Origin: Escherichia phage T4_ev151
Direction: 5' to 3' (one strand)
Sequence record: LR597660
DNA length: 64,000 bases
The notes under the pieces are model-generated. The model had not been told where the DNA came from. It was given only the letters and a program-made list of their open reading frames with translations, and made no database searches. The position numbers and the translations under genes are program-made. How positions within the stretch are numbered: position 1 is the first letter of the stretch; the number at the start of each line of letters is the position of its first letter. Shown here in pieces: positions 2,129 to 62,139 of this stretch.

Positions 2129-2158
2129 ATTATACCACATCCTTGTGGTAAAGTAAAC
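2129..2158 (-). promoter_or_regulatory. sigma70-type early promoter (-35 GTTTAC, 18-bp spacer, extended -10 TGTGGTATAAT) for rIIA.1/rIIA
   Basis: plus-strand attata 2129-2134 and gtaaac 2153-2158; 30-nt near-identical copy at 46104-46133. Confidence 0.6.
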
Positions 2159-3978
2159 TACTGGCTCATCCATTCTTTGCGAAGGTCAGCATTATCTCCC
2201 ATGAGCATTTCAAAAAGCTCTTTCCAGTTCTCAGGAAGTTTAACAACATCATATACTGGATTTTGAATCATCTCACGATATTCAGATTTTTCCAAAGAGC
2301 CAAGTCCTTTAATATAACGGATGCTATGTTTAGGTAGAGCATCTTTGGCACTCTCATATTCAGCGACTGTATAAAACCATTCTTGTTTTTTACCGACCTG
2401 AGCGATGATTACAGGAGTTTTGACAAAGCGAATTCGTCCTTGCTCAAACAGTTCTGGCCAATTACTAAAAAATCCAAGAAGAGAAGGATAAATGCTTCCT
2501 AGACCATCATGGTCAGCATCAGTCATAATAGCAATATTATGATAATTCAAGTTTTCAGCTTTTTCACCAAGAACTAATCCAGTGATTGCGCAAATATCAA
2601 ATAGTTCTTTATTTTTAAGCATATCAGCATATGACATACCCCAACTGTTGAGAACTTTACCACGCAATGGATAACCACCATGAAGTTCTTTATCACGAAC
2701 ATCAATAAGATATCCGATAGCAGAATCACCCTCAGTCAAGAAAAGAGTAGTATCAGCATCTTTACCGCAAAGATTCGCTTTGATATGTTTATGAACTTTA
2801 GCTTTAGAAGCCTTTTTAGCTGCTTTAGTTTCAGCTGCTTTTTCTGCTGCCAATTTACGAGCTAGTGCAGCTTCAATAATCGGCATTAAAATTGCTTCAT
2901 TATTTAGAATAGCGCGTGAAATCTTTTTAGCATCAAGCTGAATATGACTACGAATTTCACCAAATGGAGAAGTCAAACGCTCTTTAGTCTGAGAATCAAA
3001 TCGCATGTTTTTCATATCACGAACAAACATAACGATAGTCAAACATTCTTTAACACGTGCTTTAGTTACATCAATTTTGAACTTGCGCTTGATTTGTGGA
3101 ATAAGGTCTTCACAAATATCATCCATAACGCAGTCAATGTGATGGCCACCATTCTTAGTATGAATGTTATTGACGTATGTTAATTGACGAAAACCATCTG
3201 GTGAACGACCAACCGCAATAGAACAATTTTCTTGTTCTTGAACAATAGCATGCTCATCATATTGGCGTGCATATTTCTTAAAATTACCCTGAACCTTTTT
3301 ACCATTAAAGGTAAATTGAATATCAGGATAAACTACTGCAAGTGTCTGGAGACGATCTAGTGTAATGTCAAGATAAACTTGAGATAGCTCATTAGTTTCA
3401 AATGACATAAAATCAGGAATGAAAGTAACGCGAGTTCCTTTCCATTTTCCAGGAATAGTTTCCCAGGATTTATTTTCCATGCCATTTGAACAACGAACTA
3501 CAATATTATTTTGACCATCGCCAGTTTCACCGACAAACATCACAGAAAAAATGTTAGTTAAACTAGAACCAACACCATTCATACCACCGGTGACACGTTC
3601 TTTATCATCACCAAAGTTACCACCCGCTTTTGGAATAGTCCAAGCAGCAACTGGACCAGGAATTTCTTCACCGGTAGGTGTTTTAACCATCGCTTGTGGA
3701 ATACCACGACCGTTATCTTCAACTGTTACTTGATTGTTTTTGATAGTAACATTAATTTTATTTGCGAATTTAAACTTAGTACGAATACCTTCATCTACTG
3801 AGTTATCGATAATTTCATCAATAAGCTTAACAAGACCAGGTACATACTGAACACTTTCCCATTTACCAAACAGAAAGCGCTCATGCATTTCATTAGCAGA
3901 AGAGCCAATATACATGCCGCTACGCTTTTTGATATGTTCAATATCGCTCAGAATTTTAATTTCATTCTTAATCATCAC
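2158..3978 (-). CDS. 39: DNA topoisomerase II large (ATPase) subunit, uninterrupted 39+60 fusion
   Basis: 606 aa; GHKL motif IDNSVDEG; C-terminal third (IAIMTDADHDGLGSIYPSLLGFFSNWPELF...) is the segment encoded separately by gene 60 in T4; single continuous frame. Confidence 0.9.
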   Translation of the reverse strand: MMIKNEIKILSDIEHIKKRSGMYIGSSANEMHERFLFGKWESVQYVPGLVKLIDEIIDNSVDEGIRTKFKFANKINVTIKNNQVTVEDNGRGIPQAMVKTPTGEEIPGPVAAWTIPKAGGNFGDDKERVTGGMNGVGSSLTNIFSVMFVGETGDGQNNIVVRCSNGMENKSWETIPGKWKGTRVTFIPDFMSFETNELSQVYLDITLDRLQTLAVVYPDIQFTFNGKKVQGNFKKYARQYDEHAIVQEQENCSIAVGRSPDGFRQLTYVNNIHTKNGGHHIDCVMDDICEDLIPQIKRKFKIDVTKARVKECLTIVMFVRDMKNMRFDSQTKERLTSPFGEIRSHIQLDAKKISRAILNNEAILMPIIEAALARKLAAEKAAETKAAKKASKAKVHKHIKANLCGKDADTTLFLTEGDSAIGYLIDVRDKELHGGYPLRGKVLNSWGMSYADMLKNKELFDICAITGLVLGEKAENLNYHNIAIMTDADHDGLGSIYPSLLGFFSNWPELFEQGRIRFVKTPVIIAQVGKKQEWFYTVAEYESAKDALPKHSIRYIKGLGSLEKSEYREMIQNPVYDVVKLPENWKELFEMLMGDNADLRKEWMSQ

Positions 3979-5517: not shown

Positions 5518-5799
5518 TTAATTGAACAGTGGAGCGATGCGTTTCAGAAGAGTAGCAGCACCTTTGGCAAATTTTACATCATGAAAAACAGTTTCTTCTT
5601 CCGTTACAACACGAGCTTTAATGTTTTCACAATCCCAATTTTTGCGAACAATCTTCAAAAGCTGCAGTAAATCTTTACATTCAGCAATATCGATAACACA
5701 TCCACGAGAATCTTCCATTATTGCACGATAACCATAAGCCATACCATAATCATTGAAAGATTGCTCGATGATAATTAAGTTTTCCATTTTATTCTCCAA
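5518..5799 (-). CDS. hypothetical protein
   Basis: 93-aa ORF downstream of promoter/stem-loop cassette at 5806-5860. Confidence 0.4.
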   Translation of the reverse strand: MENKMENLIIIEQSFNDYGMAYGYRAIMEDSRGCVIDIAECKDLLQLLKIVRKNWDCENIKARVVTEEETVFHDVKFAKGAATLLKRIAPLFN

Positions 5800-5884
5800 G
5801 TTGTTTTCTGTATCAGTAGTTGATATTGATATAGTACCATAATCAACTACTGATGTATATAGTTTTATGAAAAAATTTTAAACT

Positions 5885-6894: not shown

Positions 6895-7398
6895 TTAGTC
6901 TAAGGTAATAAAGCCTTTTAGTTCGGCATGAGATTTGCGGAACATTACTTGATGTCCTCCAATGATAACTTGGTCATCTGGCACTTCGTATACAGCAAGA
7001 TAAAATCCTTTAGAAGATAATTCTTCACGCTCTTCTCGGGTGAACCATCTCATCATATCATATTCACTAGCGAAAGCAAAATGATAAAGAGCTATAAACC
7101 ATCCTGGAATATAGTGATCTACGCCTACATATTCTTCTTTCTCAAAGTTAGTATTAATTGCTATATTAGCATTTTTAACTAATAATTTGTCTTCGCGCGG
7201 AAGAGGAATTCTTTTGTTATCATTACTATGATGCGTAAAATTAGGTCTATCATAACCTACGTGTAATAACCACTCTTCGCTCCATGAATCTATTATACTC
7301 CTGTATGGCGTTATTTGAACACAAAGATTTCGACGTATTGTTATAGCATCTTCACAATTAAGAATACTAAAAGATGACTCAACACGATAAATTTTCAT
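6895..7398 (-). CDS. hypothetical protein (start moved to internal Met MKIYRVESS with GAGGA RBS)
   Basis: track ORF 6895-7437 overlaps promoter at 7426-7455. Confidence 0.45.
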   Translation of the reverse strand: MKIYRVESSFSILNCEDAITIRRNLCVQITPYRSIIDSWSEEWLLHVGYDRPNFTHHSNDNKRIPLPREDKLLVKNANIAINTNFEKEEYVGVDHYIPGWFIALYHFAFASEYDMMRWFTREEREELSSKGFYLAVYEVPDDQVIIGGHQVMFRKSHAELKGFITLD

Positions 7399-7425
7399 TT
7401 TATTATCCTCAGTAGCTATGGTGTT

Positions 7426-7455
7426 ATAATACCACAACTAACCGAGGAAGTAAAC
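7426..7455 (-). promoter_or_regulatory. early promoter (-35 GTTTAC / -10 TATTAT with TG)
   Basis: plus-strand ataata 7426-7431, gtaaac 7450-7455. Confidence 0.5.
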
Positions 7456-14734: not shown

Positions 14735-14764
14735 ATTATACCATACTCATTTTGGAAAGTAAAC
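14735..14764 (-). promoter_or_regulatory. early promoter (-35 GTTTAC / -10 GGTATAAT)
   Basis: plus-strand attata 14735-14740, gtaaac 14759-14764. Confidence 0.55.
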
Positions 14765-14780
14765 CGGTAAAATGAAAAAA

Positions 14781-14800
14781 GGACTCCCTAGGGAGTCCTT
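14781..14800 (-). terminator. rho-independent terminator after soc
   Basis: perfect palindrome ggactccctagggagtcc followed by T6 on minus strand. Confidence 0.65.
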
Positions 14801-15777: not shown

Positions 15778-15803
15778 ATTATACAATAAATATATAAAGC
15801 AAT
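15778..15803 (-). promoter_or_regulatory. possible MotA-dependent middle promoter for gene 56
   Basis: minus-strand ATTGCTTTA MotA-box-like element upstream of TATAAT. Confidence 0.3.
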
Positions 15804-15814
15804 AAGGAGGACAT

Positions 15815-16015: not shown

Positions 16016-17040
16016 ATCTTAGCATATTTAGATAACCGCATTTTAGCCATCAACCCCTGGGCAATATTATTTTTCATATATTCCATAATTTGTTCAGGGG
16101 TTGCACCTTCCTTTCTAATCATATCATTGACGTCTTTTGATTTCCAGGGAGATTTATCCCAAAACATAACCCTTTCTCCTGCATCAACTAATTTAGTCAT
16201 TCGTTTGATAGTGTCAGGGTGACGAGGTTCATTATCTAAGACCCACACACGCCTATCTTTAAATGGAACAACTTCTAGGTCTAATTGACCACCCGTAATA
16301 GCTATACCATTTTCAATAAAAAGTGAATCTATAGGTCCTTCTAGAACATATACATCGCCATCTTTAACTCGTTCGACTCCATATATTTTTGTTGCCTCAG
16401 GATAAGCTTTAATGGTGATATATTTTTGAGGAGCATCTTTCTTTAATGCACGTCCTTGAAAAGACTCAGCTTTTCCATTAGCATTATAAATTGGAATAAC
16501 AAGACGAGGCTCAGAAATTTCCTTTTTGTATGTTCCCGGTGCTATGCTATTAACTAATTTAGGCCATTCGGTTGTAAACCAAAGATATTTCCATTTATCC
16601 TTTGGAATACAACGAGCTTTTACATATTTTATAATTGGATGGTCTTCCGCCAGTTTATCTAATCTAACACATGACGGAAGAGATTTAATTATTTTCTTCT
16701 CAGGTTGTTTAGGAAGTTCTTTAGGTTTTTCTACTGGACGACTTTTACCTTTTTCTTTTCTTATTTCAAAGATATACTCACGATATAAATCGGGTTCAAA
16801 CTCCTTTAAATATATTCCGATTGGTGCATGATAGTTACAGTTATAACAATGAATATTTCCTTCATTATTATCACCATAATACCATCCACGAGCTTTATTC
16901 TGATCGGTTTTTGAATCTCCACAAACAGGGCATCTAAACCGCAATTTAAAAGTTGAACTATTATTTACTTGTGTGAATTTAGGTAAATGAGCTAATGCAC
17001 GATACGCAAACTCATTATCAATCCAAGGTATTGATGACAT
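16012..17040 (-). CDS. 61: DNA primase
   Basis: 342 aa; N-terminal zinc ribbon CPVCGDS...CYNC and Toprim-like core. Confidence 0.9.
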   Translation of the reverse strand: MSSIPWIDNEFAYRALAHLPKFTQVNNSSTFKLRFRCPVCGDSKTDQNKARGWYYGDNNEGNIHCYNCNYHAPIGIYLKEFEPDLYREYIFEIRKEKGKSRPVEKPKELPKQPEKKIIKSLPSCVRLDKLAEDHPIIKYVKARCIPKDKWKYLWFTTEWPKLVNSIAPGTYKKEISEPRLVIPIYNANGKAESFQGRALKKDAPQKYITIKAYPEATKIYGVERVKDGDVYVLEGPIDSLFIENGIAITGGQLDLEVVPFKDRRVWVLDNEPRHPDTIKRMTKLVDAGERVMFWDKSPWKSKDVNDMIRKEGATPEQIMEYMKNNIAQGLMAKMRLSKYAKI

Positions 17041-17044
17041 TTTT

Positions 17045-17209
17045 ACTCTTCTTTTTCTTTAGATTCCTCTTTCTTCTTTTTAGGAATCTGTTCAGGACCT
17101 TTATTTACTACAGCGCCCGACGTTGTTCCAGTAGAGATATTTTCAGGATTACCACCTGAATCTCCAGCTACCATATCTTCTTTAATAAATTCTTTATATG
17201 TTTTCATAT
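17045..17209 (-). CDS. small hypothetical protein (not in ORF track)
   Basis: my translation MKTYKEFIKEDMVAGDSGGNPENISTGTTSGAVVNKGPEQIPKKKKEESKEKEE. Confidence 0.3.
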
Positions 17210-17565
17210 TAACCTCTATTCATAAAAGCATTAAAAATTTGGTCATCAATAGATGGAATAGCAACCTTTTCGGCATCATTTAGCAAATCATTAATTTCAT
17301 CAGATAGCATAACACATGTGCCTTTATTTCCTGTAATTGTTACTGCACAATTACGAACGTTTTCTTTATTAAATTTTAGGTTAATATTTTCGTAATGAAA
17401 ATCCTTTAATGCTGAATATATTTTTAAAATAAAATTGTCTTTTACTACAATAAACCCAACCTCACTATTAAAACGTGGTTCATGGAAACTGTAATAAACC
17501 TTTTCATCTATAAAATCGTATGAAATTTTTTCCATTTTTAAATATGAAAATTCAGAACTATACAT
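17209..17565 (-). CDS. hypothetical protein (61.1/61.2 region)
   Basis: 118-aa ORF. Confidence 0.45.
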   Translation of the reverse strand: MYSSEFSYLKMEKISYDFIDEKVYYSFHEPRFNSEVGFIVVKDNFILKIYSALKDFHYENINLKFNKENVRNCAVTITGNKGTCVMLSDEINDLLNDAEKVAIPSIDDQIFNAFMNRG

Positions 17566-17577
17566 ACTAACCTCTAA

Positions 17578-17871
17578 TTACTCACCTACCACTTCAGCGA
17601 TGATATTTTTATTATTAAAGTTTTTATCGCAATACAGAACATAATTATACTGCATTACACCACCAGATTTAAGTTGTTTTTGCACTTCAGCTTTCATTTC
17701 AGGACGATCACGTTCAACGATATTCATAATATCCGCTTCAATTTGAATTTCAACTTCAGTCTGATCTGCAGTCATAGACCATTCGCACAAATCTTTGTCA
17801 TAACCCGCCATAGCAGGCTGAGCAGCGCAAGAAGATAAAGCAAAAATTGCAGCAAAGATAAATTTTTTCAT
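17578..17871 (-). CDS. sp: periplasmic Spackle-like protein
   Basis: 97 aa; cleavable signal peptide MKKFIFAAIFALSSCAAQPAMA; size and position as T4 sp. Confidence 0.6.
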   Translation of the reverse strand: MKKFIFAAIFALSSCAAQPAMAGYDKDLCEWSMTADQTEVEIQIEADIMNIVERDRPEMKAEVQKQLKSGGVMQYNYVLYCDKNFNNKNIIAEVVGE

Positions 17872-18190: not shown

Positions 18191-18373
18191 TTATCCTCGG
18201 CAATCCACTTCACATACCTTCTTGTCATCAATGAAAGCTTTAACTAGTGCTTTATTAACTTCAGCATATTGAGTAGTAGCCCATTGAACGTCATCTTTCA
18301 TCATTGTGATCTCTTTAGTAAACATGCTTTCGTTCTTAAACCACCCCATAAAAACTACCTTTACCAATTCCAT
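18191..18373 (-). CDS. dmd: Dmd-like antitoxin (discriminator of mRNA degradation)
   Basis: 60 aa; immediately downstream of gene 41 as in T4. Confidence 0.55.
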   Translation of the reverse strand: MELVKVVFMGWFKNESMFTKEITMMKDDVQWATTQYAEVNKALVKAFIDDKKVCEVDCRG

Positions 18374-18402
18374 AACAATCTCCTCATTTAACCAACAAGA
18401 CT

Positions 18403-18432
18403 ACTATACCATAGTCTTGTCAGCTTGTAAAC
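18403..18432 (-). promoter_or_regulatory. early promoter (-35 GTTTAC / -10 TATAGT)
   Basis: gtaaac 18427-18432. Confidence 0.5.
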
Positions 18433-21464: not shown

Positions 21465-22313
21465 TTAATCAACTGCTATTGGATGAATAGCATTAAACTT
21501 ATGAAATGCTTCTGATTTTTCTTTACGCGAAACGCACATGCGAAGAACCTTTAATGGCTCGTCTTCTTCACCCAACGATTTTCGTTTTTCAATATTAGAA
21601 GTTTTCCAACGAGCTTGCTCTGGAAACTCTCTATTGATTTGCTCAAGCGCTCTATTATGTTTAGAATTACTACGAATTGAACTACACCCGCCAGGAGCTT
21701 GTGCTTTTCCAGATACAACTAGATATTTGAACAAGGCCAAATGCGGATAACCTTGATTAATTAAATTGAGAAATGCATACATATCTTCGCATAAATCAAT
21801 TTTTCCATACCCAATTTGTTCTGTCGTAAGTTTTCCGAGGTCATACCATGTATTCGTGAATCCATATGAATTTTCACGATAATTACCCCAAGATGAAGTA
21901 ATTTTAAAAATTGGTAGACGAGCATGGCCATGATAATATCCGCAATCCATGGCATCCTCAACATATTGAATCAATTCATAGAACTGTTCACGAGTTAATT
22001 GATTAATTTTATCTACGCGCCGTTTATCGTCTCTCTTTCGTATTGAACTCATACGGATAGTAGTATCATCGTCAATCATCCAGATTCGTTGACCTGCATA
22101 CATATCAGTAATTGCTTTACGAGTACCGGCAATTCCGTTTACATCATCAGGAATAGTTATAATTTTAGCTCTAGACCCATAGGCATCATAATAAGCTTTT
22201 TCTTCGTGTTCACGCACTACAATATGGGGTTCATAATCAGTCGGAAACATATCAAGGGCAGAAACTGCCCCTACACGTTGATAGCTTGGAATTACGAATT
22301 GAATCATTTCCAC
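21465..22313 (-). CDS. DxD-motif glycosyltransferase at the beta-gt locus
   Basis: 282 aa; WMIDDDTT DxD motif; sits between uvsX and 42; does not resemble T4 beta-gt N-terminus. Confidence 0.5.
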   Translation of the reverse strand: MEMIQFVIPSYQRVGAVSALDMFPTDYEPHIVVREHEEKAYYDAYGSRAKIITIPDDVNGIAGTRKAITDMYAGQRIWMIDDDTTIRMSSIRKRDDKRRVDKINQLTREQFYELIQYVEDAMDCGYYHGHARLPIFKITSSWGNYRENSYGFTNTWYDLGKLTTEQIGYGKIDLCEDMYAFLNLINQGYPHLALFKYLVVSGKAQAPGGCSSIRSNSKHNRALEQINREFPEQARWKTSNIEKRKSLGEEDEPLKVLRMCVSRKEKSEAFHKFNAIHPIAVD

Positions 22314-23456: not shown

Positions 23457-23837
23457 TCACTTAGTCAAATTTTTTACGCATGAATTATAAGAATTCACTA
23501 CATACTCCATCGGAGCATTTTTACCAGTACGCCATTGGTAATTATTGGCCCAATTAGCCCAAAGCTCGGCGCAGTAGTTTTCAATTTTTTCTTCGCGTGT
23601 AATTACATCCGAATTACGATATGCTTGAGCAGATTCATCTGGACGAATAGCTTCGTCAAAATTCGCCTGCATTTGTTCGACTGTTTGCTTTGGAGCTTCT
23701 TTATAACACTTGACATTAGGATTATAAAATTTGCTTGAACAGTTTACAATTTTTCCTGCATCAGACTGATTTACTACCGGTCCTTGAGCTACACAACCAG
23801 TAAGACCTAATGCAATAACCAAAATAGCGATTTTCAT
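23457..23837 (-). CDS. putative lipoprotein
   Basis: 126 aa; signal peptide with lipobox LTGC. Confidence 0.45.
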   Translation of the reverse strand: MKIAILVIALGLTGCVAQGPVVNQSDAGKIVNCSSKFYNPNVKCYKEAPKQTVEQMQANFDEAIRPDESAQAYRNSDVITREEKIENYCAELWANWANNYQWRTGKNAPMEYVVNSYNSCVKNLTK

Positions 23838-23847
23838 AATAATTTCC

Positions 23848-24096
23848 TCAAATGCAAGTAGTAATTACTCCAGTAGTGCTTATGCAGGTATTACCCATTT
23901 GCACACCTAAAGATCCATTTGTATTCACATGAAGATTATCATCAATTTTAACTGATATTTTACCATTAGTGTGAATAACAGTGCTAGATTCAATCACAGG
24001 TTGAGTATCATTTTCAACACTAACAAATGGAACTGCTGTTAATGCAACTAAACAAACTGCTAAGCATCCCATAACAATTTTCATTTTATTCTCCAA
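23848..24096 (-). CDS. small secreted protein
   Basis: 82 aa with signal peptide. Confidence 0.4.
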   Translation of the reverse strand: MENKMKIVMGCLAVCLVALTAVPFVSVENDTQPVIESSTVIHTNGKISVKIDDNLHVNTNGSLGVQMGNTCISTTGVITTCI

Positions 24097-24120
24097 ATCT
24101 GTATCAGTAGTTGATAGTTG

Positions 24121-24150
24121 TATAGTACCATGGAAGAACAGTCTTGTAAA
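24121..24150 (-). promoter_or_regulatory. early promoter with conserved stem-loop leader (PeSL-like cassette)
   Basis: gtaaac 24145-24150, -10 TACTAT; transcribed tatcagtagttgata inverted repeat at 24101-24115. Confidence 0.55.
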
Positions 24151-24238
24151 CAGTTTTGTGAAAATTTTTTAGGGAATTCTAAAGGTCCAGAATCATCTGT
24201 TTTTCATAAGTATAGATTTATATTACTTGTATGAAAAA

Positions 24239-24256
24239 GGGACCCGGAGGTCCCTA
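24239..24256 (-). terminator. rho-independent terminator after gene 43
   Basis: gggacccggaggtccc hairpin followed by T5 on minus strand. Confidence 0.6.
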
Positions 24257-26964: not shown

Positions 26965-27004
26965 AGATATTCCTTAGTTTATAGCCCGAGTTATTAGGCT
27001 CTTG
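26965..27004 (-). promoter_or_regulatory. gene 43 translational operator (RNA hairpin plus RBS)
   Basis: minus-strand GAGCCUAAUAACUCGGGCUAUAAACUAAGGAAUAUCUAUG directly upstream of the gene 43 AUG. Confidence 0.55.
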
Positions 27005-27020
27005 ATATATTATACTCCAA

Positions 27021-27036
27021 ATAAGGGGCCGAAGCC
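27021..27036 (-). terminator. GC hairpin (UUCG loop) upstream of gene 43
   Basis: aaggggccgaagcccctt. Confidence 0.4.
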
Positions 27037-27042
27037 CCTTGC

Positions 27043-27264
27043 TTAAATTAGTACTATTTGTCGGTGAAAAATTGTCATTCCATCTGCATTAATTGATTTA
27101 ACGACTGCGGTAAAGTGTTTTTGTTCTGGATGAATTAATTTTTGAAATTCTACCTGAAATTTTAGTTGAAGGTTTTCTGGTAAATCAAAAAGTGTTTCTG
27201 TTGCAGAAAGATTATATTTTTCTTTAAGAGACGCCATGTATTCTTGCGGAGTTATAGCAGTCAT
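27043..27264 (-). CDS. small hypothetical protein
   Basis: track ORF 27043-27306 overlaps regA; likely starts at internal Met. Confidence 0.3.
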   Translation of the reverse strand: MTAITPQEYMASLKEKYNLSATETLFDLPENLQLKFQVEFQKLIHPEQKHFTAVVKSINADGMTIFHRQIVLI

Positions 27265-46103: not shown

Positions 46104-46133
46104 CATTATACCACATCCTTGTGGCAAAGTAAA
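46104..46133 (-). promoter_or_regulatory. early promoter, near-identical copy of the 2129-2158 promoter
   Basis: attataccacatccttgtggcaaagtaaac. Confidence 0.55.
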
Positions 46134-47156
46134 CTAGTTCAGTGCATTTAGTGCATTGTTCAATTTAGAACGTTGCTTCGTGAGATTTTTGACTTTTTCT
46201 TGAGCTTTTTCTAGCATCTTTTCAGCTTCTAGCACTTCATTAGTTGCTTTAACGAGTTCATCATCTACTGCCTTGATAGACTTCTCAATCGCATCCGCGT
46301 GCCATTTTTCAACAGGTTTAAGACTCGGATTTTCAGTAGGAAGAAAATTCACTTTATTGAATTTCCATGCATCTTTATTACCTGAGCTATACATCCAAAA
46401 TTTAGGATCGTTTGATGAGCAATTAGATAAATTTAAGTTATCTTGCACTTCCTGCTTTTTCTCTTGCGGGACTTCATCCTTTCTCAAAAAATCGTATTTA
46501 AATGAAACGATCATATCAAGTTCATACGTTGTTGTATGTTCCCAATTTCGCTCAAAATGAGGTAAAATCTTAGACTGAACAGCGGCAACAACATCCATAT
46601 ACTTAAATGCTTCTGTCAACTGTGATTTAAGGCATTCACAAATTGAAAGAGAATTTTTTGTATTAGGTTTAAAGCTAATTCGTGCAGTTCTATTATTTTC
46701 TTTTAATGGTCTTACTTCCATCTGAAGAGTATAACCATCAAATTTCAGGTTCTTTAAGTTAATATCAGAGCCTTTTAATCGACTAGCAGTAGACAAAATT
46801 TGCTTTAATTGTCTACGGAACAGAGCAATAAATCTCCATTCAATACGATAATGATTTGGATTGAAAAATCCAGATGATAAATCGACCTTACTTTGACCAA
46901 CGCCTTGAACAAATAGAGGATTTTTATAATCAATAGTTTTACAGAAATCGGTGAGCTGCTCACGAGCAGTCATTTGTGTAATATACCCTGCTTCATTAAA
47001 ATTACGCACCCATTCACTGCTATTCTTATACTTAAAGTGATGAATAGCATGATTAACTTTACCAAGGTCTAAATTATTTTCACACAAAAATGTCATAACA
47101 TCACGAGTATAGCTGGCATTACGAACCATATCTTCAATTTGAGAACGAGTTTTCAT
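46134..47156 (-). CDS. coiled-coil-tailed paralog family member 3
   Basis: 340 aa; RIEWRFIALFRRQLKQILSTASRL; C-terminal coiled coil. Confidence 0.5.
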   Translation of the reverse strand: MKTRSQIEDMVRNASYTRDVMTFLCENNLDLGKVNHAIHHFKYKNSSEWVRNFNEAGYITQMTAREQLTDFCKTIDYKNPLFVQGVGQSKVDLSSGFFNPNHYRIEWRFIALFRRQLKQILSTASRLKGSDINLKNLKFDGYTLQMEVRPLKENNRTARISFKPNTKNSLSICECLKSQLTEAFKYMDVVAAVQSKILPHFERNWEHTTTYELDMIVSFKYDFLRKDEVPQEKKQEVQDNLNLSNCSSNDPKFWMYSSGNKDAWKFNKVNFLPTENPSLKPVEKWHADAIEKSIKAVDDELVKATNEVLEAEKMLEKAQEKVKNLTKQRSKLNNALNALN

Positions 47157-48523: not shown

Positions 48524-49051
48524 TTATGCGAGTACCGTCTTTAACCGTTCTTCAAACTTCCGAAGAGTATTTTGGCGTTCAGCTCTTTGCTTTTTGTAAG
48601 TTTCAATACGCTCTGAAATGAGAGTGTATCGTTCATTTACTGATTCTTTCATAAAATCAGGAATTTCACGAGAAGCTTTAATCTCGTCAAATTTATCAAT
48701 AACAGCTTGCTCTTCAGCAATTAAGTTATCATACATCAAAATATCTTTCTTGATGAACTCAATATCTTCTTGAGTTACACGAGATAATTTAGATGCTTTA
48801 TCCTTTTTGTACTGTTCGTTAGTATCACGAGACCAGTGTAATGTACGATTTTTATTCGTATTTTTGTAAATTTCTACAATACCAATCTCATCGATAATAA
48901 CGATCCAATTCCAACGAGATTTGTAAATTTGTCCTCCATCAACCGTGATTTCACCTCCGATTGAGATGTCATTAAAGAACTTGCTTTGTGCTTCTGATTT
49001 AAATTTACCATCATTGTAATTTACCAGGTTGAAAATATCTTTAGCGTTCAT
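48524..49051 (-). CDS. hypothetical protein (start at MNAKDIF, downstream of promoter)
   Basis: 175 aa. Confidence 0.45.
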   Translation of the reverse strand: MNAKDIFNLVNYNDGKFKSEAQSKFFNDISIGGEITVDGGQIYKSRWNWIVIIDEIGIVEIYKNTNKNRTLHWSRDTNEQYKKDKASKLSRVTQEDIEFIKKDILMYDNLIAEEQAVIDKFDEIKASREIPDFMKESVNERYTLISERIETYKKQRAERQNTLRKFEERLKTVLA

Positions 49052-49079
49052 TTTCTGTTCCTCCGTAGTTGATAGTTGT

Positions 49080-49109
49080 ATAGTACCACAGAGGAACGGT
49101 CTTGTAAAC
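49080..49109 (-). promoter_or_regulatory. early promoter with stem-loop leader (PeSL-like)
   Basis: gtaaac 49104-49109, -10 TACTAT, leader gtagttgatagttgtatag. Confidence 0.5.
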
Positions 49110-49496: not shown

Positions 49497-50216
49497 TTAG
49501 GATTCTTCTAAATGTCTTTTCTGAAAAGTTGATACCATACTACGATACGGTTCATTTGGATACCCGTGTTTTATAGCTTCCTTTGTAAATTTTCTCCATC
49601 CATATTTAGTTTCTTTCCAAAGCTCGAATAATTCATCTTCATATTGCCATATAGTTAAATGAGAACGCTTTGCAGCTTTAATTCCATTAATATGCTTTTC
49701 TTTTACTACAGGATTGCTTAGTTTCTTTTTAATAATATTACTAACTTTTCTAACAAAAACTGGGTCCTTATATCGTTGCGAAGTTTTTATTGAAGTGTTT
49801 AATTTAGCTTCCGGCGTGGATGTGACCTCTTTCATCTTTTTCTTCATATGCTGTATATGATTAGGATTTTTCCATAAATTTATAGAATGCTTTTTGCATT
49901 TTATCCTAGTTTCATCTGCAACCTTTCCTCCTTCACCCCCGTATGACAGGTTAACACAGTTTTTTCCATATTTCAATTTACCTGCCATGATATATAATAT
50001 TTCAGCTTGTACCATTTTATCATAATTATCAAAAACTTCTAAAACCGTTTTTGATAATATGTGGTCATTTGACACTTTTACACGTTCTATATAATTTCCA
50101 CTACCAACATACGAATCATTGATGTTATTAGTTATATGTCGACCATAATAATATTTCTTAATACCTGTCTTTAAATTTAATATTTCAGTTTTATAGATAG
50201 TAAAATATTTTTTCAT
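49497..50216 (-). CDS. possible free-standing GIY-YIG-like homing endonuclease
   Basis: 239 aa; N-terminal TIY...YYYGRH...YVGSG; basic C-terminal repeats resembling DNA-binding modules. Confidence 0.4.
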   Translation of the reverse strand: MKKYFTIYKTEILNLKTGIKKYYYGRHITNNINDSYVGSGNYIERVKVSNDHILSKTVLEVFDNYDKMVQAEILYIMAGKLKYGKNCVNLSYGGEGGKVADETRIKCKKHSINLWKNPNHIQHMKKKMKEVTSTPEAKLNTSIKTSQRYKDPVFVRKVSNIIKKKLSNPVVKEKHINGIKAAKRSHLTIWQYEDELFELWKETKYGWRKFTKEAIKHGYPNEPYRSMVSTFQKRHLEES

Positions 50217-51193
50217 TTTAATAATACCGTTTCAGCGATTTCTTCCCAACCGTTTTTGTCGGTCATAATAAAGTCAGCAAGATAAAGAGCAGTACGCAGT
50301 GAAACATTACGTAAACGATTAACATTGACTTTCATCCATGATAATGCTTTATAAGTTTCTTCATCAGAAAGACCGCGCTTTTGCATCATGTCAGTTGAAA
50401 GAATAACATCTTCAACCCTGACCATAATTTCTTCATTAGTGTGAACACCCAAATCCAAATAAACTGAGCGGGACACTAATGCTTGTAAATGTGGAGCAAG
50501 TTTAGTACCACGGTCTAATTCGCGGTCAATGTCAACGTTTGTGATAAAAACAATCGTTCCTTTAAATTCAAACTCACGCTCAATGCCTTTTTCTTCTAAG
50601 TAAGAAGATGCGGTGCTCCAGCAGACTTTACGGGTCTCTCCAGTGTCCAGAGCAGCTTTCAGAAGATTAAGAATGTCCATATCAGAGAAAACATCCACAT
50701 CATCAATCAAAAGGACAGAATTCTCTTCACGATTATTCCAAAGCTGCTCATAAAGACCAATACCAGAGATTTTACCATTAATGCTTTTATACTCAATGTA
50801 TCCAATATCATTTGCTTTATTTAAAGCTTTATCTAAAGAATACGTTTTACCAATACCCGCCGCACCAGAGATAATTAATGAACGAATATTTCCGTTAATA
50901 ATACCGTTCGTCATCATTCCCATAACATTAAATCTTTTATTAATGCGGGTTTTCATATCTTCATATGATTCTTTAACTTCTTCAACTTTTACACCATCAT
51001 ATGAAATGTCTGATTTGTAAACCCAAACACCGCGACGCTTACCGTCAATTTCAACAAAAACTTTACCATCTCCTTGTGCATCTATCGGAGCATTATCTGG
51101 GAACCATTCGCCCAAGAGTTCAAAAGTTCCAGAGATTTCTTTACCGAAGTAGATACCCTTATTGATAGTTACAGTTTTCATTTTATTCTCCAA
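50213..51193 (-). CDS. AAA+/P-loop ATPase with ~100-aa N-terminal domain
   Basis: 326 aa; Walker A GAAGIGKT, Walker B VLLIDDVD. Confidence 0.6.
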   Translation of the reverse strand: MENKMKTVTINKGIYFGKEISGTFELLGEWFPDNAPIDAQGDGKVFVEIDGKRRGVWVYKSDISYDGVKVEEVKESYEDMKTRINKRFNVMGMMTNGIINGNIRSLIISGAAGIGKTYSLDKALNKANDIGYIEYKSINGKISGIGLYEQLWNNREENSVLLIDDVDVFSDMDILNLLKAALDTGETRKVCWSTASSYLEEKGIEREFEFKGTIVFITNVDIDRELDRGTKLAPHLQALVSRSVYLDLGVHTNEEIMVRVEDVILSTDMMQKRGLSDEETYKALSWMKVNVNRLRNVSLRTALYLADFIMTDKNGWEEIAETVLLK

Positions 51194-51215
51194 ATCCGTA
51201 TCAGTTGATAGTTGT

Positions 51216-51245
51216 ATAGTACCATAAAGCTTTATGCTTGTAAAC
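51216..51245 (-). promoter_or_regulatory. early promoter with stem-loop leader (PeSL-like)
   Basis: gtaaac 51240-51245, -10 TACTAT, leader gtatcagttgatagttgtatag. Confidence 0.55.
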
Positions 51246-51274
51246 AGTTTTGTGAAAAATTTTTGAAATAAAAA

Positions 51275-51297
51275 AGGAAGCCCGAAGGCTCCCTATC
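51275..51297 (-). terminator. rho-independent terminator (strand-specific)
   Basis: minus-strand RNA AGGGAGCCUUCGGGCUUCCU with G-U pair, followed by U6. Confidence 0.6.
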
Positions 51298-53990: not shown

Positions 53991-54020
53991 ACTATACCAT
54001 AACCTTGCCAACTTGTAAAC
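53991..54020 (-). promoter_or_regulatory. early promoter (-35 GTTTAC / -10 TATAGT)
   Basis: gtaaac 54015-54020. Confidence 0.5.
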
Positions 54021-54622: not shown

Positions 54623-54774
54623 GCCATGTGAGTTGCAGCTTCATCACACATATTATAACGTTTCTTAAGAAATTCTACAAGTTCTTCACTAGTAACTTCA
54701 TCCATGTCGACGAAAAAATCACCATTAATGATGACGTAGATATTTCCTTCTTGATTGAGTGCTTCAATTTTCAT
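54586..54774 (-). CDS. small hypothetical protein (start [10 protein letters not shown] with GAGGAG RBS)
   Basis: track ORF start overlaps promoter. Confidence 0.35.
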
Positions 54775-54802
54775 GATGTTCTCCTCTTTATCCGATAGTT
54801 GT

Positions 54803-54832
54803 ATAGTACCACAGCTCAAACGTAAAGTAAAC
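54803..54832 (-). promoter_or_regulatory. early promoter with leader repeat (PeSL-like)
   Basis: gtaaac 54827-54832, -10 TACTAT. Confidence 0.5.
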
Positions 54833-54847
54833 CGGTAAAATGAAAAA

Positions 54848-54865
54848 AGTCTCCCGAAGGAGACT
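54848..54865 (-). terminator. rho-independent terminator
   Basis: agtctcccgaaggagact followed by T6 on minus strand. Confidence 0.65.
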
Positions 54866-58519: not shown

Positions 58520-58981
58520 TCATTGAGTTTTAATTACTGCTTTAGAAGCCTTTCCTGGTAAACGACGACTGTTGATAATTGCCATCCTGCATTGAAGTGA
58601 CGGGTTTTTGAACTTCTCATTAGGCTTACAAACCGTAAATCCAAGCCAAAGATTTCCATCTGTGATTTCTAAACGTCCAGGACGATATTCAACCCCATCA
58701 ATAAAATCCTCGTCAATGTCAGGACGCGGAGGCATACTCAGGAATTCATTAACTTCTAAAACATGGTCTTTTATTTTATGGAATAATTCAAAAACATATG
58801 TCTCATCAATCTCCCGTTGAATTGCACGATCAAGAAGATGTTGAGAATATTTTAGATGAAACGATGAGACTCCTGCTGCTTTTGATGCCTCACGAATCTC
58901 ATTGTTAATTTGACGAAACTCCGACTCAAAATGACGACGAAGCTTATTTCGACGGATAAAAACTTCTGTATTGATAGTCAT
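58520..58981 (-). CDS. regB: RegB endoribonuclease
   Basis: 153 aa; position downstream of tk region as in T4. Confidence 0.6.
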   Translation of the reverse strand: MTINTEVFIRRNKLRRHFESEFRQINNEIREASKAAGVSSFHLKYSQHLLDRAIQREIDETYVFELFHKIKDHVLEVNEFLSMPPRPDIDEDFIDGVEYRPGRLEITDGNLWLGFTVCKPNEKFKNPSLQCRMAIINSRRLPGKASKAVIKTQ

Positions 58982-59008
58982 GTTGTTCTCCTCTTAACTG
59001 ATAGAAAA

Positions 59009-59038
59009 ATTATACCACAGTCAAGAGGAAAAGTAAAC
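59009..59038 (-). promoter_or_regulatory. early promoter (-35 GTTTAC / -10 TGTGGTATAAT)
   Basis: attata 59009-59014, gtaaac 59033-59038. Confidence 0.55.
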
Positions 59039-61667: not shown

Positions 61668-62084
61668 TTAAATGTAAATATTTTTGCCGTAATACTTGTA
61701 CCAGTGTGGCTTCATTAAAATTTTTTCATCAAGTCGTTGTTGACTCAATTTAATAGCTGATTTGCATGGATTATAATCATTTTTCCATTCTGCTGGAATA
61801 TCGCTGATGTCAGGAACTTCAGTATCTTTTATACTGAACCCGCGTTTTAAGCATTCCGTTATAATGTCTGATTGACGCTTTCGCAAAAATTCTAACTTAT
61901 CGTAAAAGAAAGTAACATGACCAGAACCTAAAATAAACTCGGAAGATATTTTAAAATCTTTAACCCGCTTACCATTTGCAACATGTTTACGAACTATACC
62001 AAAAACACGCGGCAATTCACGGTATTCTGCGATTAAATGTTGATCAGCAAGTTCAGATACTAAAGTCAAATTAATACGAGTCAT
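61668..62084 (-). CDS. denV: endonuclease V (pyrimidine dimer DNA glycosylase)
   Basis: 138 aa; [17 protein letters not shown]...YKYYGK. Confidence 0.9.
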
Positions 62085-62109
62085 TTTATCCCTCCAAGTA
62101 ACTGTGAAT

Positions 62110-62139
62110 ATACTATCACAATTCTAGGAGAAAGTAAAC
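62110..62139 (-). promoter_or_regulatory. early promoter for denV
   Basis: gtaaac 62134-62139, -10 TAGTAT. Confidence 0.45.

Follow-up and report, generated by a model that had tools for sequence, protein, structure and literature searches.

What is the element of about 50 bp that stands at positions 24098-24150 of the window (the whole 64,000-nucleotide stretch of the Escherichia phage T4_ev151 record LR597660 analysed here), and what does its repetition mean? The initial annotation had described it, together with copies at 5806-5860, 49063-49109, 51197-51245 and 54793-54832, as a PeSL-like cassette that combines an early promoter and a stem-loop, and had proposed that such cassettes are substrates for modular gene shuffling, which bracket exactly the variable gene blocks. 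The answer depends on what the copies are, on which stem-loop they carry and what it may do, and on whether gene exchanges occur at the copies.

The window is a Tequatrovirus early region

A 5-kb probe around the focal site (the copy at 24098-24150) matched 619 phage records, nearly all of them Tequatrovirus (T4, T2, the RB-series and relatives), at 95-99% identity. A chain of blastn matches placed T4 (AF158101) from about 0.3 to 68.8 kb colinear with the window, the gene order of which is near that of RB14 and of the Shigella phage JK08. Judged by its sequence, the window is a Tequatrovirus (T4/RB14-like) segment. The minus strand carries all genes of the window, and the cassettes are therefore to be read as the reverse complement. 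An Rfam search of the window returned no match.

The gene content has the following peculiarities. The dam methyltransferase gene, present in T4 (16825-17725) and JK08, is missing from the window and from RB14, and only a 20-bp junction is left at 15783-15804. The topoisomerase large subunit is encoded by one fused ORF of 606 amino acids (2158-3978; 60plus39 in the RB14 annotation), without the T4 gene 60 bypass, 60.1 and the mobA insertion. The mobB, mobC and segA genes and the nrdD intron are all missing from the window, and a T2/T6-type beta-glucosyl-HMC-alpha-glucosyltransferase gene (21465-22313) stands where T4 has b-gt. An ORF of 239 amino acids (49497-50216) lies between nrdC.10 and nrdC.9; it occurs in RB14, where it is annotated as a seg-like homing endonuclease, and not in T4 or JK08. 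This ORF stands between two cassettes, yet it is not bounded by either of them.

The five copies are early promoters with identity beyond the hexamers

All five copies were found where they had been reported, on the minus strand. A 20-nt core (GGTACTATACAACTATCAAC) searched for with up to three mismatches matched exactly these five sites, all on that strand, against 0.02 matches expected in shuffled sequences. A generic sigma70 promoter scan was uninformative in such AT-rich DNA (88-96 sites versus 83-89 expected), so that a T4-specific pattern was used instead. This T4-type early consensus (GTTTAC-N14-16-KRKTAYWRT) gave 15 matches, all on the minus strand, versus 0.06 expected, and the 64 kb contain about 18-19 early promoters once slightly weaker sites are counted. 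By synteny, the five copies correspond to the T4 promoters before cef (window 5860), imm.1 (24150, the focal copy), nrdC.8 (49108), nrdC.10 (51244) and mobD.5 (54831), and T4 itself has further paralogous copies, e.g., before e.8. The T4 GenBank record holds no promoter annotation, and our literature search found no global TSS map for T4; in the record of the Yersinia phage fPS-90, a 'predicted early promoter' and a 'terminator' are annotated at the focal position.

Multiple alignment of the copies revealed identity past the promoter hexamers, to which the similarity is thus not confined. The blocks TTTTCAyAAAACTGTTTAC (upstream) and TGGTACTATAyaAcTATC (downstream) are common to the copies, and GGAGAATAAAATG is common to three of them. 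The similarity spans about 100 bp, including a shared UP element (the 24150, 51244 and 5860 copies conserve AAAAATTTTTCAyAAAACT, and the others are AT-rich there). All five copies are intergenic, and at their 3' end stand GGAG or GAGG and the ATG with which a same-strand ORF begins. Two details of the original description need adjustment. The GTTTAC -35 is present in four copies, that of the 5806-5860 copy being degenerate (ATATAC), and the 18-bp spacer holds only when counted from GTTTAC, its length under the hexamer convention for sigma70 being 17 bp (TTTACA-17-TACTAT). The TTTACW-N17-TAYWAT pattern of the T4/PST group is exact in four of the five copies (TTTACA/T-17-TACTAT), and the 5860 copy (TATACA as -35) departs from it by one mismatch.

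The second promoter variant reported in the window is also real. Its copies at 2129 and 46105 have in common TAGTTTACTTTrCCACAAGGATGTGGTATAAT and, with one mismatch, a 35-nt block that includes the spacer palindrome; the copy at 59009 has only GTTTACTTT and TGTGGTATAAT in common with them.

Read on the minus strand, the focal site runs ...AGGGACCTCCGGGTCCCTTTTT (the terminator after gene 43), 75 nt of AT-rich sequence, and AAAAAATTTTCACAAAACT GTTTAC AAGACTGTTCTTCCATGG TACTAT ACAACTATCAACTACTGATACAGATTTGGAGAATAAA ATG (Table 1). The ORF that it drives (78 amino acids, MKIVMGCLAVC...) and the neighbouring imm.1 (23457-23837; MKIAILVIALGLTGC...) both start with lipoprotein-like signal peptides; their products may be small envelope proteins, and they adjoin the superinfection-immunity gene imm.

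Table 1. Coordinates of the cassettes, of their parts and of the associated hairpins (z, z-score of the predicted RNA fold).
Feature	Position	Strand	z	Remarks
Focal early promoter cassette	24082..24200	(-)		ortholog of the T4 imm.1 promoter (T4 27000-27100)
Focal AT-rich UP element	about 24152-24200	(-)
Focal -35, GTTTAC	24151-24146	(-)
Focal TGn and -10, TACTAT	24127-24122	(-)
Focal conserved initially transcribed block	24121-24107	(-)		ACAACTATCAACTAC
Focal SD, GGAG; start codon, ATG	24094-24091; 24084-24082	(-)
Leader 5-bp inverted repeat, TATCA-ACTAC-TGATA	24102..24116	(-)	-0.2	not significant, not conserved
Gene 43 intrinsic terminator	24238..24255	(-)		AGGGACCTCCGGGTCCCT plus TTTTTCA; 7 pairs, 5 GC, T-run
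78-aa ORF driven by the focal cassette	23848..24084	(-)
nrdC.10 cassette	51180..51294	(-)		terminator 51275-51294; -35 51245-51240; -10 51221-51216; ATG 51182-51180; spacer palindrome CATAAAGCTTTATG
nrdC.8 cassette	49051..49109	(-)	-4.05	no upstream terminator; spacer arm 49097-49085 pairs with leader/SD arm 49068-49056 (GTTCCTCTGTGG / ..ACGGAGGAAC); dG -19.4
mobD.5 cassette	54771..54865	(-)		terminator 54848-54865; -35 54832-54827; -10 54808-54803; ATG 54773-54771
Cassette before the 90-aa ORF upstream of cef (5860)	5787..5860	(-)	-4.59	degenerate -35 ATATAC; -10 5836-5831; perfect 13-bp inverted repeat ATCAGTAGTTGAT (5854-5842) / ATCAACTACTGAT (5825-5813) around the -10; dG -20.2
Second-variant early promoter before rIIA.1	2129..2158	(-)		spacer palindrome CCACAAGGATGTGG
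Second-variant early promoter before nrdC.4	46105..46134	(-)		near-identical to 2129-2158
regB early promoter	58979..59038	(-)	-4.84	spacer UUUUCCUCUUGACUG pairs with leader/SD CAGUUAAGAGGAGAA, -10 in the loop
motB.2 early promoter	7396..7455	(-)	-6.55	-10-spanning hairpin, 3' arm = SD; dG -23.7
denV early promoter	62082..62139	(-)	-4.0	spacer/SD hairpin
dmd early promoter	18373..18432	(-)	-3.45	15-bp -10-spanning hairpin; 3' arm = initially transcribed region, not SD
mobD.2 promoter	53991-54020		-4.52	paralog of the dmd promoter
motB promoter			-3.48	SD outside the stem
modB promoter			-2.71	3' arm = SD

The stem-loop is an upstream terminator or a hairpin overlapping the promoter

The inverted repeat that had been taken for the common stem-loop of the cassettes did not withstand inspection of the copies. 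It occurs in only two of the five (24098 and 5806), the 51197 copy having a loopless TATCAGTTGATA and the copies at 49063 and 54793 having no such repeat. It is highly improbable that tatcagtagttgata operates as a functional RNA stem-loop defining the cassette: although it appears in the minimum free energy fold, its energy is only -1.9 kcal/mol; orthologous leaders carry indels that break it (aactaatacgg and aactgatacgg in the contigs L004, L014 and L027); and in the 5806 copy the same bases form instead the 3' arm of the 13-bp repeat with the spacer. RNA that begins at the local promoters has a leader with next to no structure (0 to -2.7 kcal/mol). The leader repeat was rejected as the PeSL stem-loop, which is rather the upstream terminator or a hairpin in, or overlapping, the promoter.

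Canonical intrinsic terminators stand upstream of three of the five copies (focal, nrdC.10 and mobD.5; Table 1), and hairpins occur at the other two, 49108 and 5860, so that each copy has a stem-loop in or near the promoter. At the focal site, the gene 43 terminator, 88 nt upstream of the -35, is the PeSL stem-loop of the cassette. Upstream intrinsic terminators were also found at the promoters at 14763 and 38425. The upstream part of the mobD.5 cassette (TTTTTCATTTTACCGGTTTACTTT) is common to the promoter at 14763. The mrh.2 (14735-14800) and mobD.5 (54803-54865) promoters have an identical terminator tail in addition to this block, with a -10 and a leader from different sub-families, i.e., a sub-block mosaic within the cassettes.

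The PeSL-like label is correct, in that the defining features are present at the sequence level, and the five copies are very probably sigma70-dependent early promoters of a T4-like phage packaged as PeSL cassettes. Each unit comprises an AT-rich UP element, the GTTTAC -35, the TGn/-10, a conserved initially transcribed block, an SD and the start codon of the first gene. The host sigma70 RNA polymerase would fire the cassettes right after infection, so that the proximal accessory gene is expressed, and the upstream terminator would insulate the unit.

About half of the early promoters are predicted to form a hairpin around the -10

When the region from the -35 to ATG+3 of 18 early promoters was folded as RNA, nine of them yielded a strong hairpin (z <= -2.7) with the -10 hexamer in its loop, one arm being formed by the promoter spacer and the other by the initially transcribed region (Table 1). 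The 3' arm is the Shine-Dalgarno sequence in regB, motB.2, nrdC.8, denV and modB, and the stem leaves it out in dmd, mobD.2, motB and 5860. Among the TACTAT-family copies to which the focal one belongs, those at 24150, 51244 and 54831 have no significant hairpin of this type (z > -0.5); in its T2 allele, the focal cassette has one (z -5.07).

Controls and comparisons of these hairpins gave the following results. First, a spacer pairs better with its own leader than in permuted spacer/leader pairs (p = 0.007). Second, in a scan of 122 minus-strand genes, a z below -2.5 was found for 40% of the promoter-proximal genes versus 6.5% of the rest (Fisher p = 0.0013), a group whose outliers include the experimentally known hairpins of e (62638) and 49 (41918). 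Third, the regB hairpin is kept in three clades with different stems (CCUCUUGACUG/CAGUUAAGAGG, CUCCUCUAGUUG/CAACUAGAGGAG and CUCCUGUAAG/CUUACAGGAG; z -4.8, -5.4 and -4.3), as is the motB.2 hairpin in two clades (z -6.6 and -6.1/-6.8), the folds of the two hairpins in relatives ranging from z -3.1 to -6.8. Fourth, two fully compensatory pair changes distinguish the paralogous dmd and mobD.2 promoters, and single substitutions within Tequatrovirus turn G.U into A.U and G-C into G.U pairs. The evidence of covariation consists of the per-clade folds, since the cross-clade MAFFT/RNAalifold alignments mis-registered the hairpin arms (the consensus structure was meaningless for motB.2 and partial for regB, and the column-wise covariation counts were weak). 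The Dmd relatives in IMG/VR are all near-identical and gave no covariation signal.

Strong structures in the 60 nt upstream of the start codon were also observed at genes that have no promoter there (30541, 20213 and 33879; z -5.0, -3.4 and -3.05). The IMG/VR contig 3300045988_128797 (L022) has, at 2040-2390, two extra early promoters with inverted repeats around the -10 (GGTCT/AGACC and GATAGGACT/AGTCCTATC), which extends the pattern to cassettes that do not occur in the window.

Do these palindromes operate as RNA or as DNA? In all 11 hairpins tested, the sense RNA folds better than the antisense RNA, by 2-10 kcal/mol (sum -205 versus -124 kcal/mol), and each contains one to four G.U pairs. 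These features point to a structure of the RNA, on read-through transcripts, rather than to a symmetry of the DNA. The converse view is that the palindromes act as cruciforms or as sites for a dimeric protein or a recombinase; a conserved stem-loop as a possible target of recombination proteins was indeed a speculation of Arbiol 2010 (PMC2839356), and the 13-bp repeat at 5813-5854 is perfect. We regard it as very unlikely, for the stem sequences vary between promoters and so offer no common binding motif, and the cruciform version was rejected on the comparison of the sense and antisense folds.

A possible translational gate or attenuator

By analogy with known T4 genes, we tentatively propose that many early-promoter spacers of T-even phages carry an anti-SD or anti-leader, and that the resulting hairpin gates the translation of the proximal gene, a proposal to which we give close to even credence. 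In T4 e, soc, 49 and I-TevI, the SD or AUG is sequestered in a hairpin, the 5' arm of which lies upstream of the start of a promoter, so that only the transcripts from this promoter are translatable (PMC3014915). Similarly, in regB, motB.2, nrdC.8, denV and modB, and not in the focal copy or those at 51244 and 54831, the SD pairs with a 5' arm located upstream of the start of the embedded promoter. Where the spacer can pair with the bases transcribed first or with the SD, only RNA reading through from upstream could form the hairpin over the -10, which would mask the ribosome site of these five genes or attenuate the transcript, and RNA started at the local promoter would have an open leader. 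Gating would thereby confine the translation of the five genes to the immediate-early burst. Consistently, the predicted SD accessibility falls from 0.55-0.76 in the own-promoter RNA to 0.05-0.23 in the read-through RNA for denV, regB, nrdC.8 and modB, a drop that is partly a generic effect of the longer RNA.

The original reading of the PeSLs takes the -10-spanning hairpins for attenuators or terminators of upstream transcription instead of translational gates. In a transcriptional fusion with lacZ, an RB49 PeSL stem-loop that separated the reporter from its promoter caused a reduction comparable to that by rrnB T1, and the stem-loops described in that work sit between -35 and -10, or overlap the -10, with G-T pairs (Arbiol 2010, PMC2839356). 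This reading, which would also suit the four window hairpins that leave the SD out, is possible, if on the doubtful side: no U-run follows a -10-spanning hairpin in the window, and none of these hairpins is among the terminators found by the scan; the 3' arm is the SD in five cases, with a pairing that is retained from clade to clade as the remainder of the stem varies; and the SD-pairing hairpins parallel the proven cases of e, soc, 49 and I-TevI (PMC3014915). Gating and attenuation could both hold.

The hairpin structures themselves are already described and are not new. We did not find an early-promoter gate with the SD as the 3' arm in Hinton 2010 (PMC2988021) or Uzan & Miller 2010 (PMC3014915), and the spacer/SD complementarity as a translational gate is a modest new angle on the PeSLs. 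If the gate is true, part of the PeSL 'stem-loops' would be translational gates rather than terminators, and gating would help to explain the shut-off of RegB-type immediate-early synthesis despite continued transcription through the genes, the shut-off of immediate-early proteins being incompletely understood according to the 2010 reviews (PMC2988021, PMC3014915).

Cassettes and the exchange of genes

The claim that the cassettes bracket exactly the variable blocks was not borne out. Comparing the window with T4, RB14 and JK08 by chained blastn, we counted 27 distinct indel or replacement events, seven of which touch a promoter junction versus 5.9 +/- 2.1 expected (P = 0.38) under random placement on the 121 gene junctions, 19 of them promoter-bearing; none of the events is flanked by cassettes on both sides. 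Two of the five named copies adjoin an indel, and the homing-endonuclease and intron differences that make up many of the 27 events (mobA/60, segF, segA, mobB, mobC, the nrdD intron, the seg-like ORF and mobD) have edges without a promoter.

The two copies that adjoin an indel are the focal and the 5860 ones. T4 and RB14 are without the 78-aa ORF as a result of a 234-bp deletion between 8-bp direct repeats (ATGAAAAT, at 24071 and 23837), which are the first codons of this ORF and of imm.1. At the 5860 locus, T4, RB14 and JK08 have a 200-bp internal deletion (5579-5780) of the 90-aa ORF. The indels at these two copies are microhomology deletions, and not exchanges between cassettes.

A wider comparison gave a more favourable picture of exchange. 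At the 43/imm.1 junction, 517 phage records present at least three alleles: 317 records have the 78-aa ORF, the T4-type has none and the T2-type has an unrelated ORF of 83 amino acids. The T2 focal allele has the same upstream part, but the spacer and leader are of the nrdC.8 type and the ORF is different. The contig L029 has the nrdC.8-type 60-bp module before a third unrelated ORF, with 2 nt in 60 differing among the window 49108 copy, the T2 focal allele and L029. Between the nrdC.10 cassette and nrdC.10, L022 has three ORFs and the two extra early promoters, and L015 and L031 carry cassettes that have lost the -35. In the T4-like contigs of IMG/VR, a 17-mer core occurs five to eight times per genome, before at least 11 different genes (matches within coding sequence, in L021, L024 and L028, were ignored as coincidental). 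These mosaic alleles (T2, L022 and L029) show promoter-leader modules joined to unrelated genes.

The T4 ipIII-ipII block (T4 65359-66454) has its insertion point precisely within the leader that joins the 62138 promoter to denV (window 62088-62095). RB14 is without denV at this locus and has Ip4 instead, and of all hot spots in the window the denV/ip locus is the most clearly promoter-bounded. The clear single cases of a cassette-associated ORF change are this locus, the focal junction and, in L022, nrdC.10.

As to the cassettes as substrates of modular exchange, the proposal has support in the identical promoter-leader modules found before unrelated ORFs, and none in the indel boundaries, which showed no excess at promoter junctions against T4, RB14 and JK08. 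Given the near-identity of the copies over 20-100 bp, T4 recombination within the conserved blocks, whether homologous or microhomology-mediated, would occasionally exchange, insert or delete the attached ORFs.

Could the likeness among the copies merely reflect selection toward one extended RNA-polymerase consensus, with no special role in gene shuffling? Reviews describe T4 early promoters as 'uber' UP/-35/TGn/-10 promoters with additional consensus regions (Hinton 2010, PMC2988021), divergent clades, too, have a CTATCAA-like motif following the -10, and the lack of enrichment of indel boundaries at promoters and the microhomology nature of the local deletions agree with such an explanation. 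It is nonetheless rather unlikely as a full account, for positions that RNA polymerase does not read (spacer and leader) are also near-identical before the unrelated ORFs of 49108, the T2 allele and L029; the junctions in L022, L031 and L015 fall inside the cassette; and mini-circles arising by PeSL-PeSL recombination were shown experimentally, in RB49/phi1 only (PMC2839356). A strong polymerase-driven consensus could by itself account for part of the similarity.

Comparison with known systems

As textbook T4 early promoters and already published PeSLs, the cassettes chiefly bear out the window's character as an ordinary T-even early region. They are relevant as control units of phage accessory genes (host-takeover and defence-related) and as plausible splice points for swaps of such genes, which makes them useful in annotation and in phage engineering. 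The complementarity between the spacer and the leader or SD is the only item of research value, as a testable extension of the PeSL concept.

The classical T4 early promoters (Pe) and their extended consensus were reportedly described by Liebig and Rueger in 1989 and by Wilkens and Rueger in 1994, and Hinton 2010 (PMC2988021) reviews them. The window copies have the same UP element, GTTTAC -35, TGn, -10 and extra conserved positions, and would share the very high strength and immediate-early expression of that class, from which they do not differ; the copies with TACTAT and ACAACTATCAAC are a sub-family within it.

In a PeSL, an AT-rich region and an early promoter are combined with a stem-loop and with the SD/ATG that belongs to a small gene (Arbiol 2010, PMC2839356; Comeau 2014, PMC4122927), and PeSLs have been reported in RB49/phi1, in the T4/PST pair (TTTACW-N17-TAYWAT) and in nt-1/KVP40 (PMC2839356; PMC4122927). 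The window copies fit this published concept and are thus already known: the layout is the same, the repeats are many and on the coding strand, and some copies stand at sites of ORF insertion, deletion or replacement. Nothing essential differs, the window copies being orthologous to the cassettes of T4 itself. In detail, an upstream terminator is missing from two of the five named copies, and the association with indels in the window is not above chance with the three comparators (T4, RB14 and JK08). Many of the window stem-loops overlap the -10, as in RB49/phi1, whereas the PST ones lie 'just upstream'.

Finally, the putative gates have the layout of those of e, soc, 49 and I-TevI, in which the 5' arm of the hairpin is upstream of the start of the embedded promoter. 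In these genes a late or middle promoter is embedded, which delays expression, whereas in the window the embedded promoter is early; gates at early promoters, if true, would mirror those that e, soc and 49 have at late promoters.
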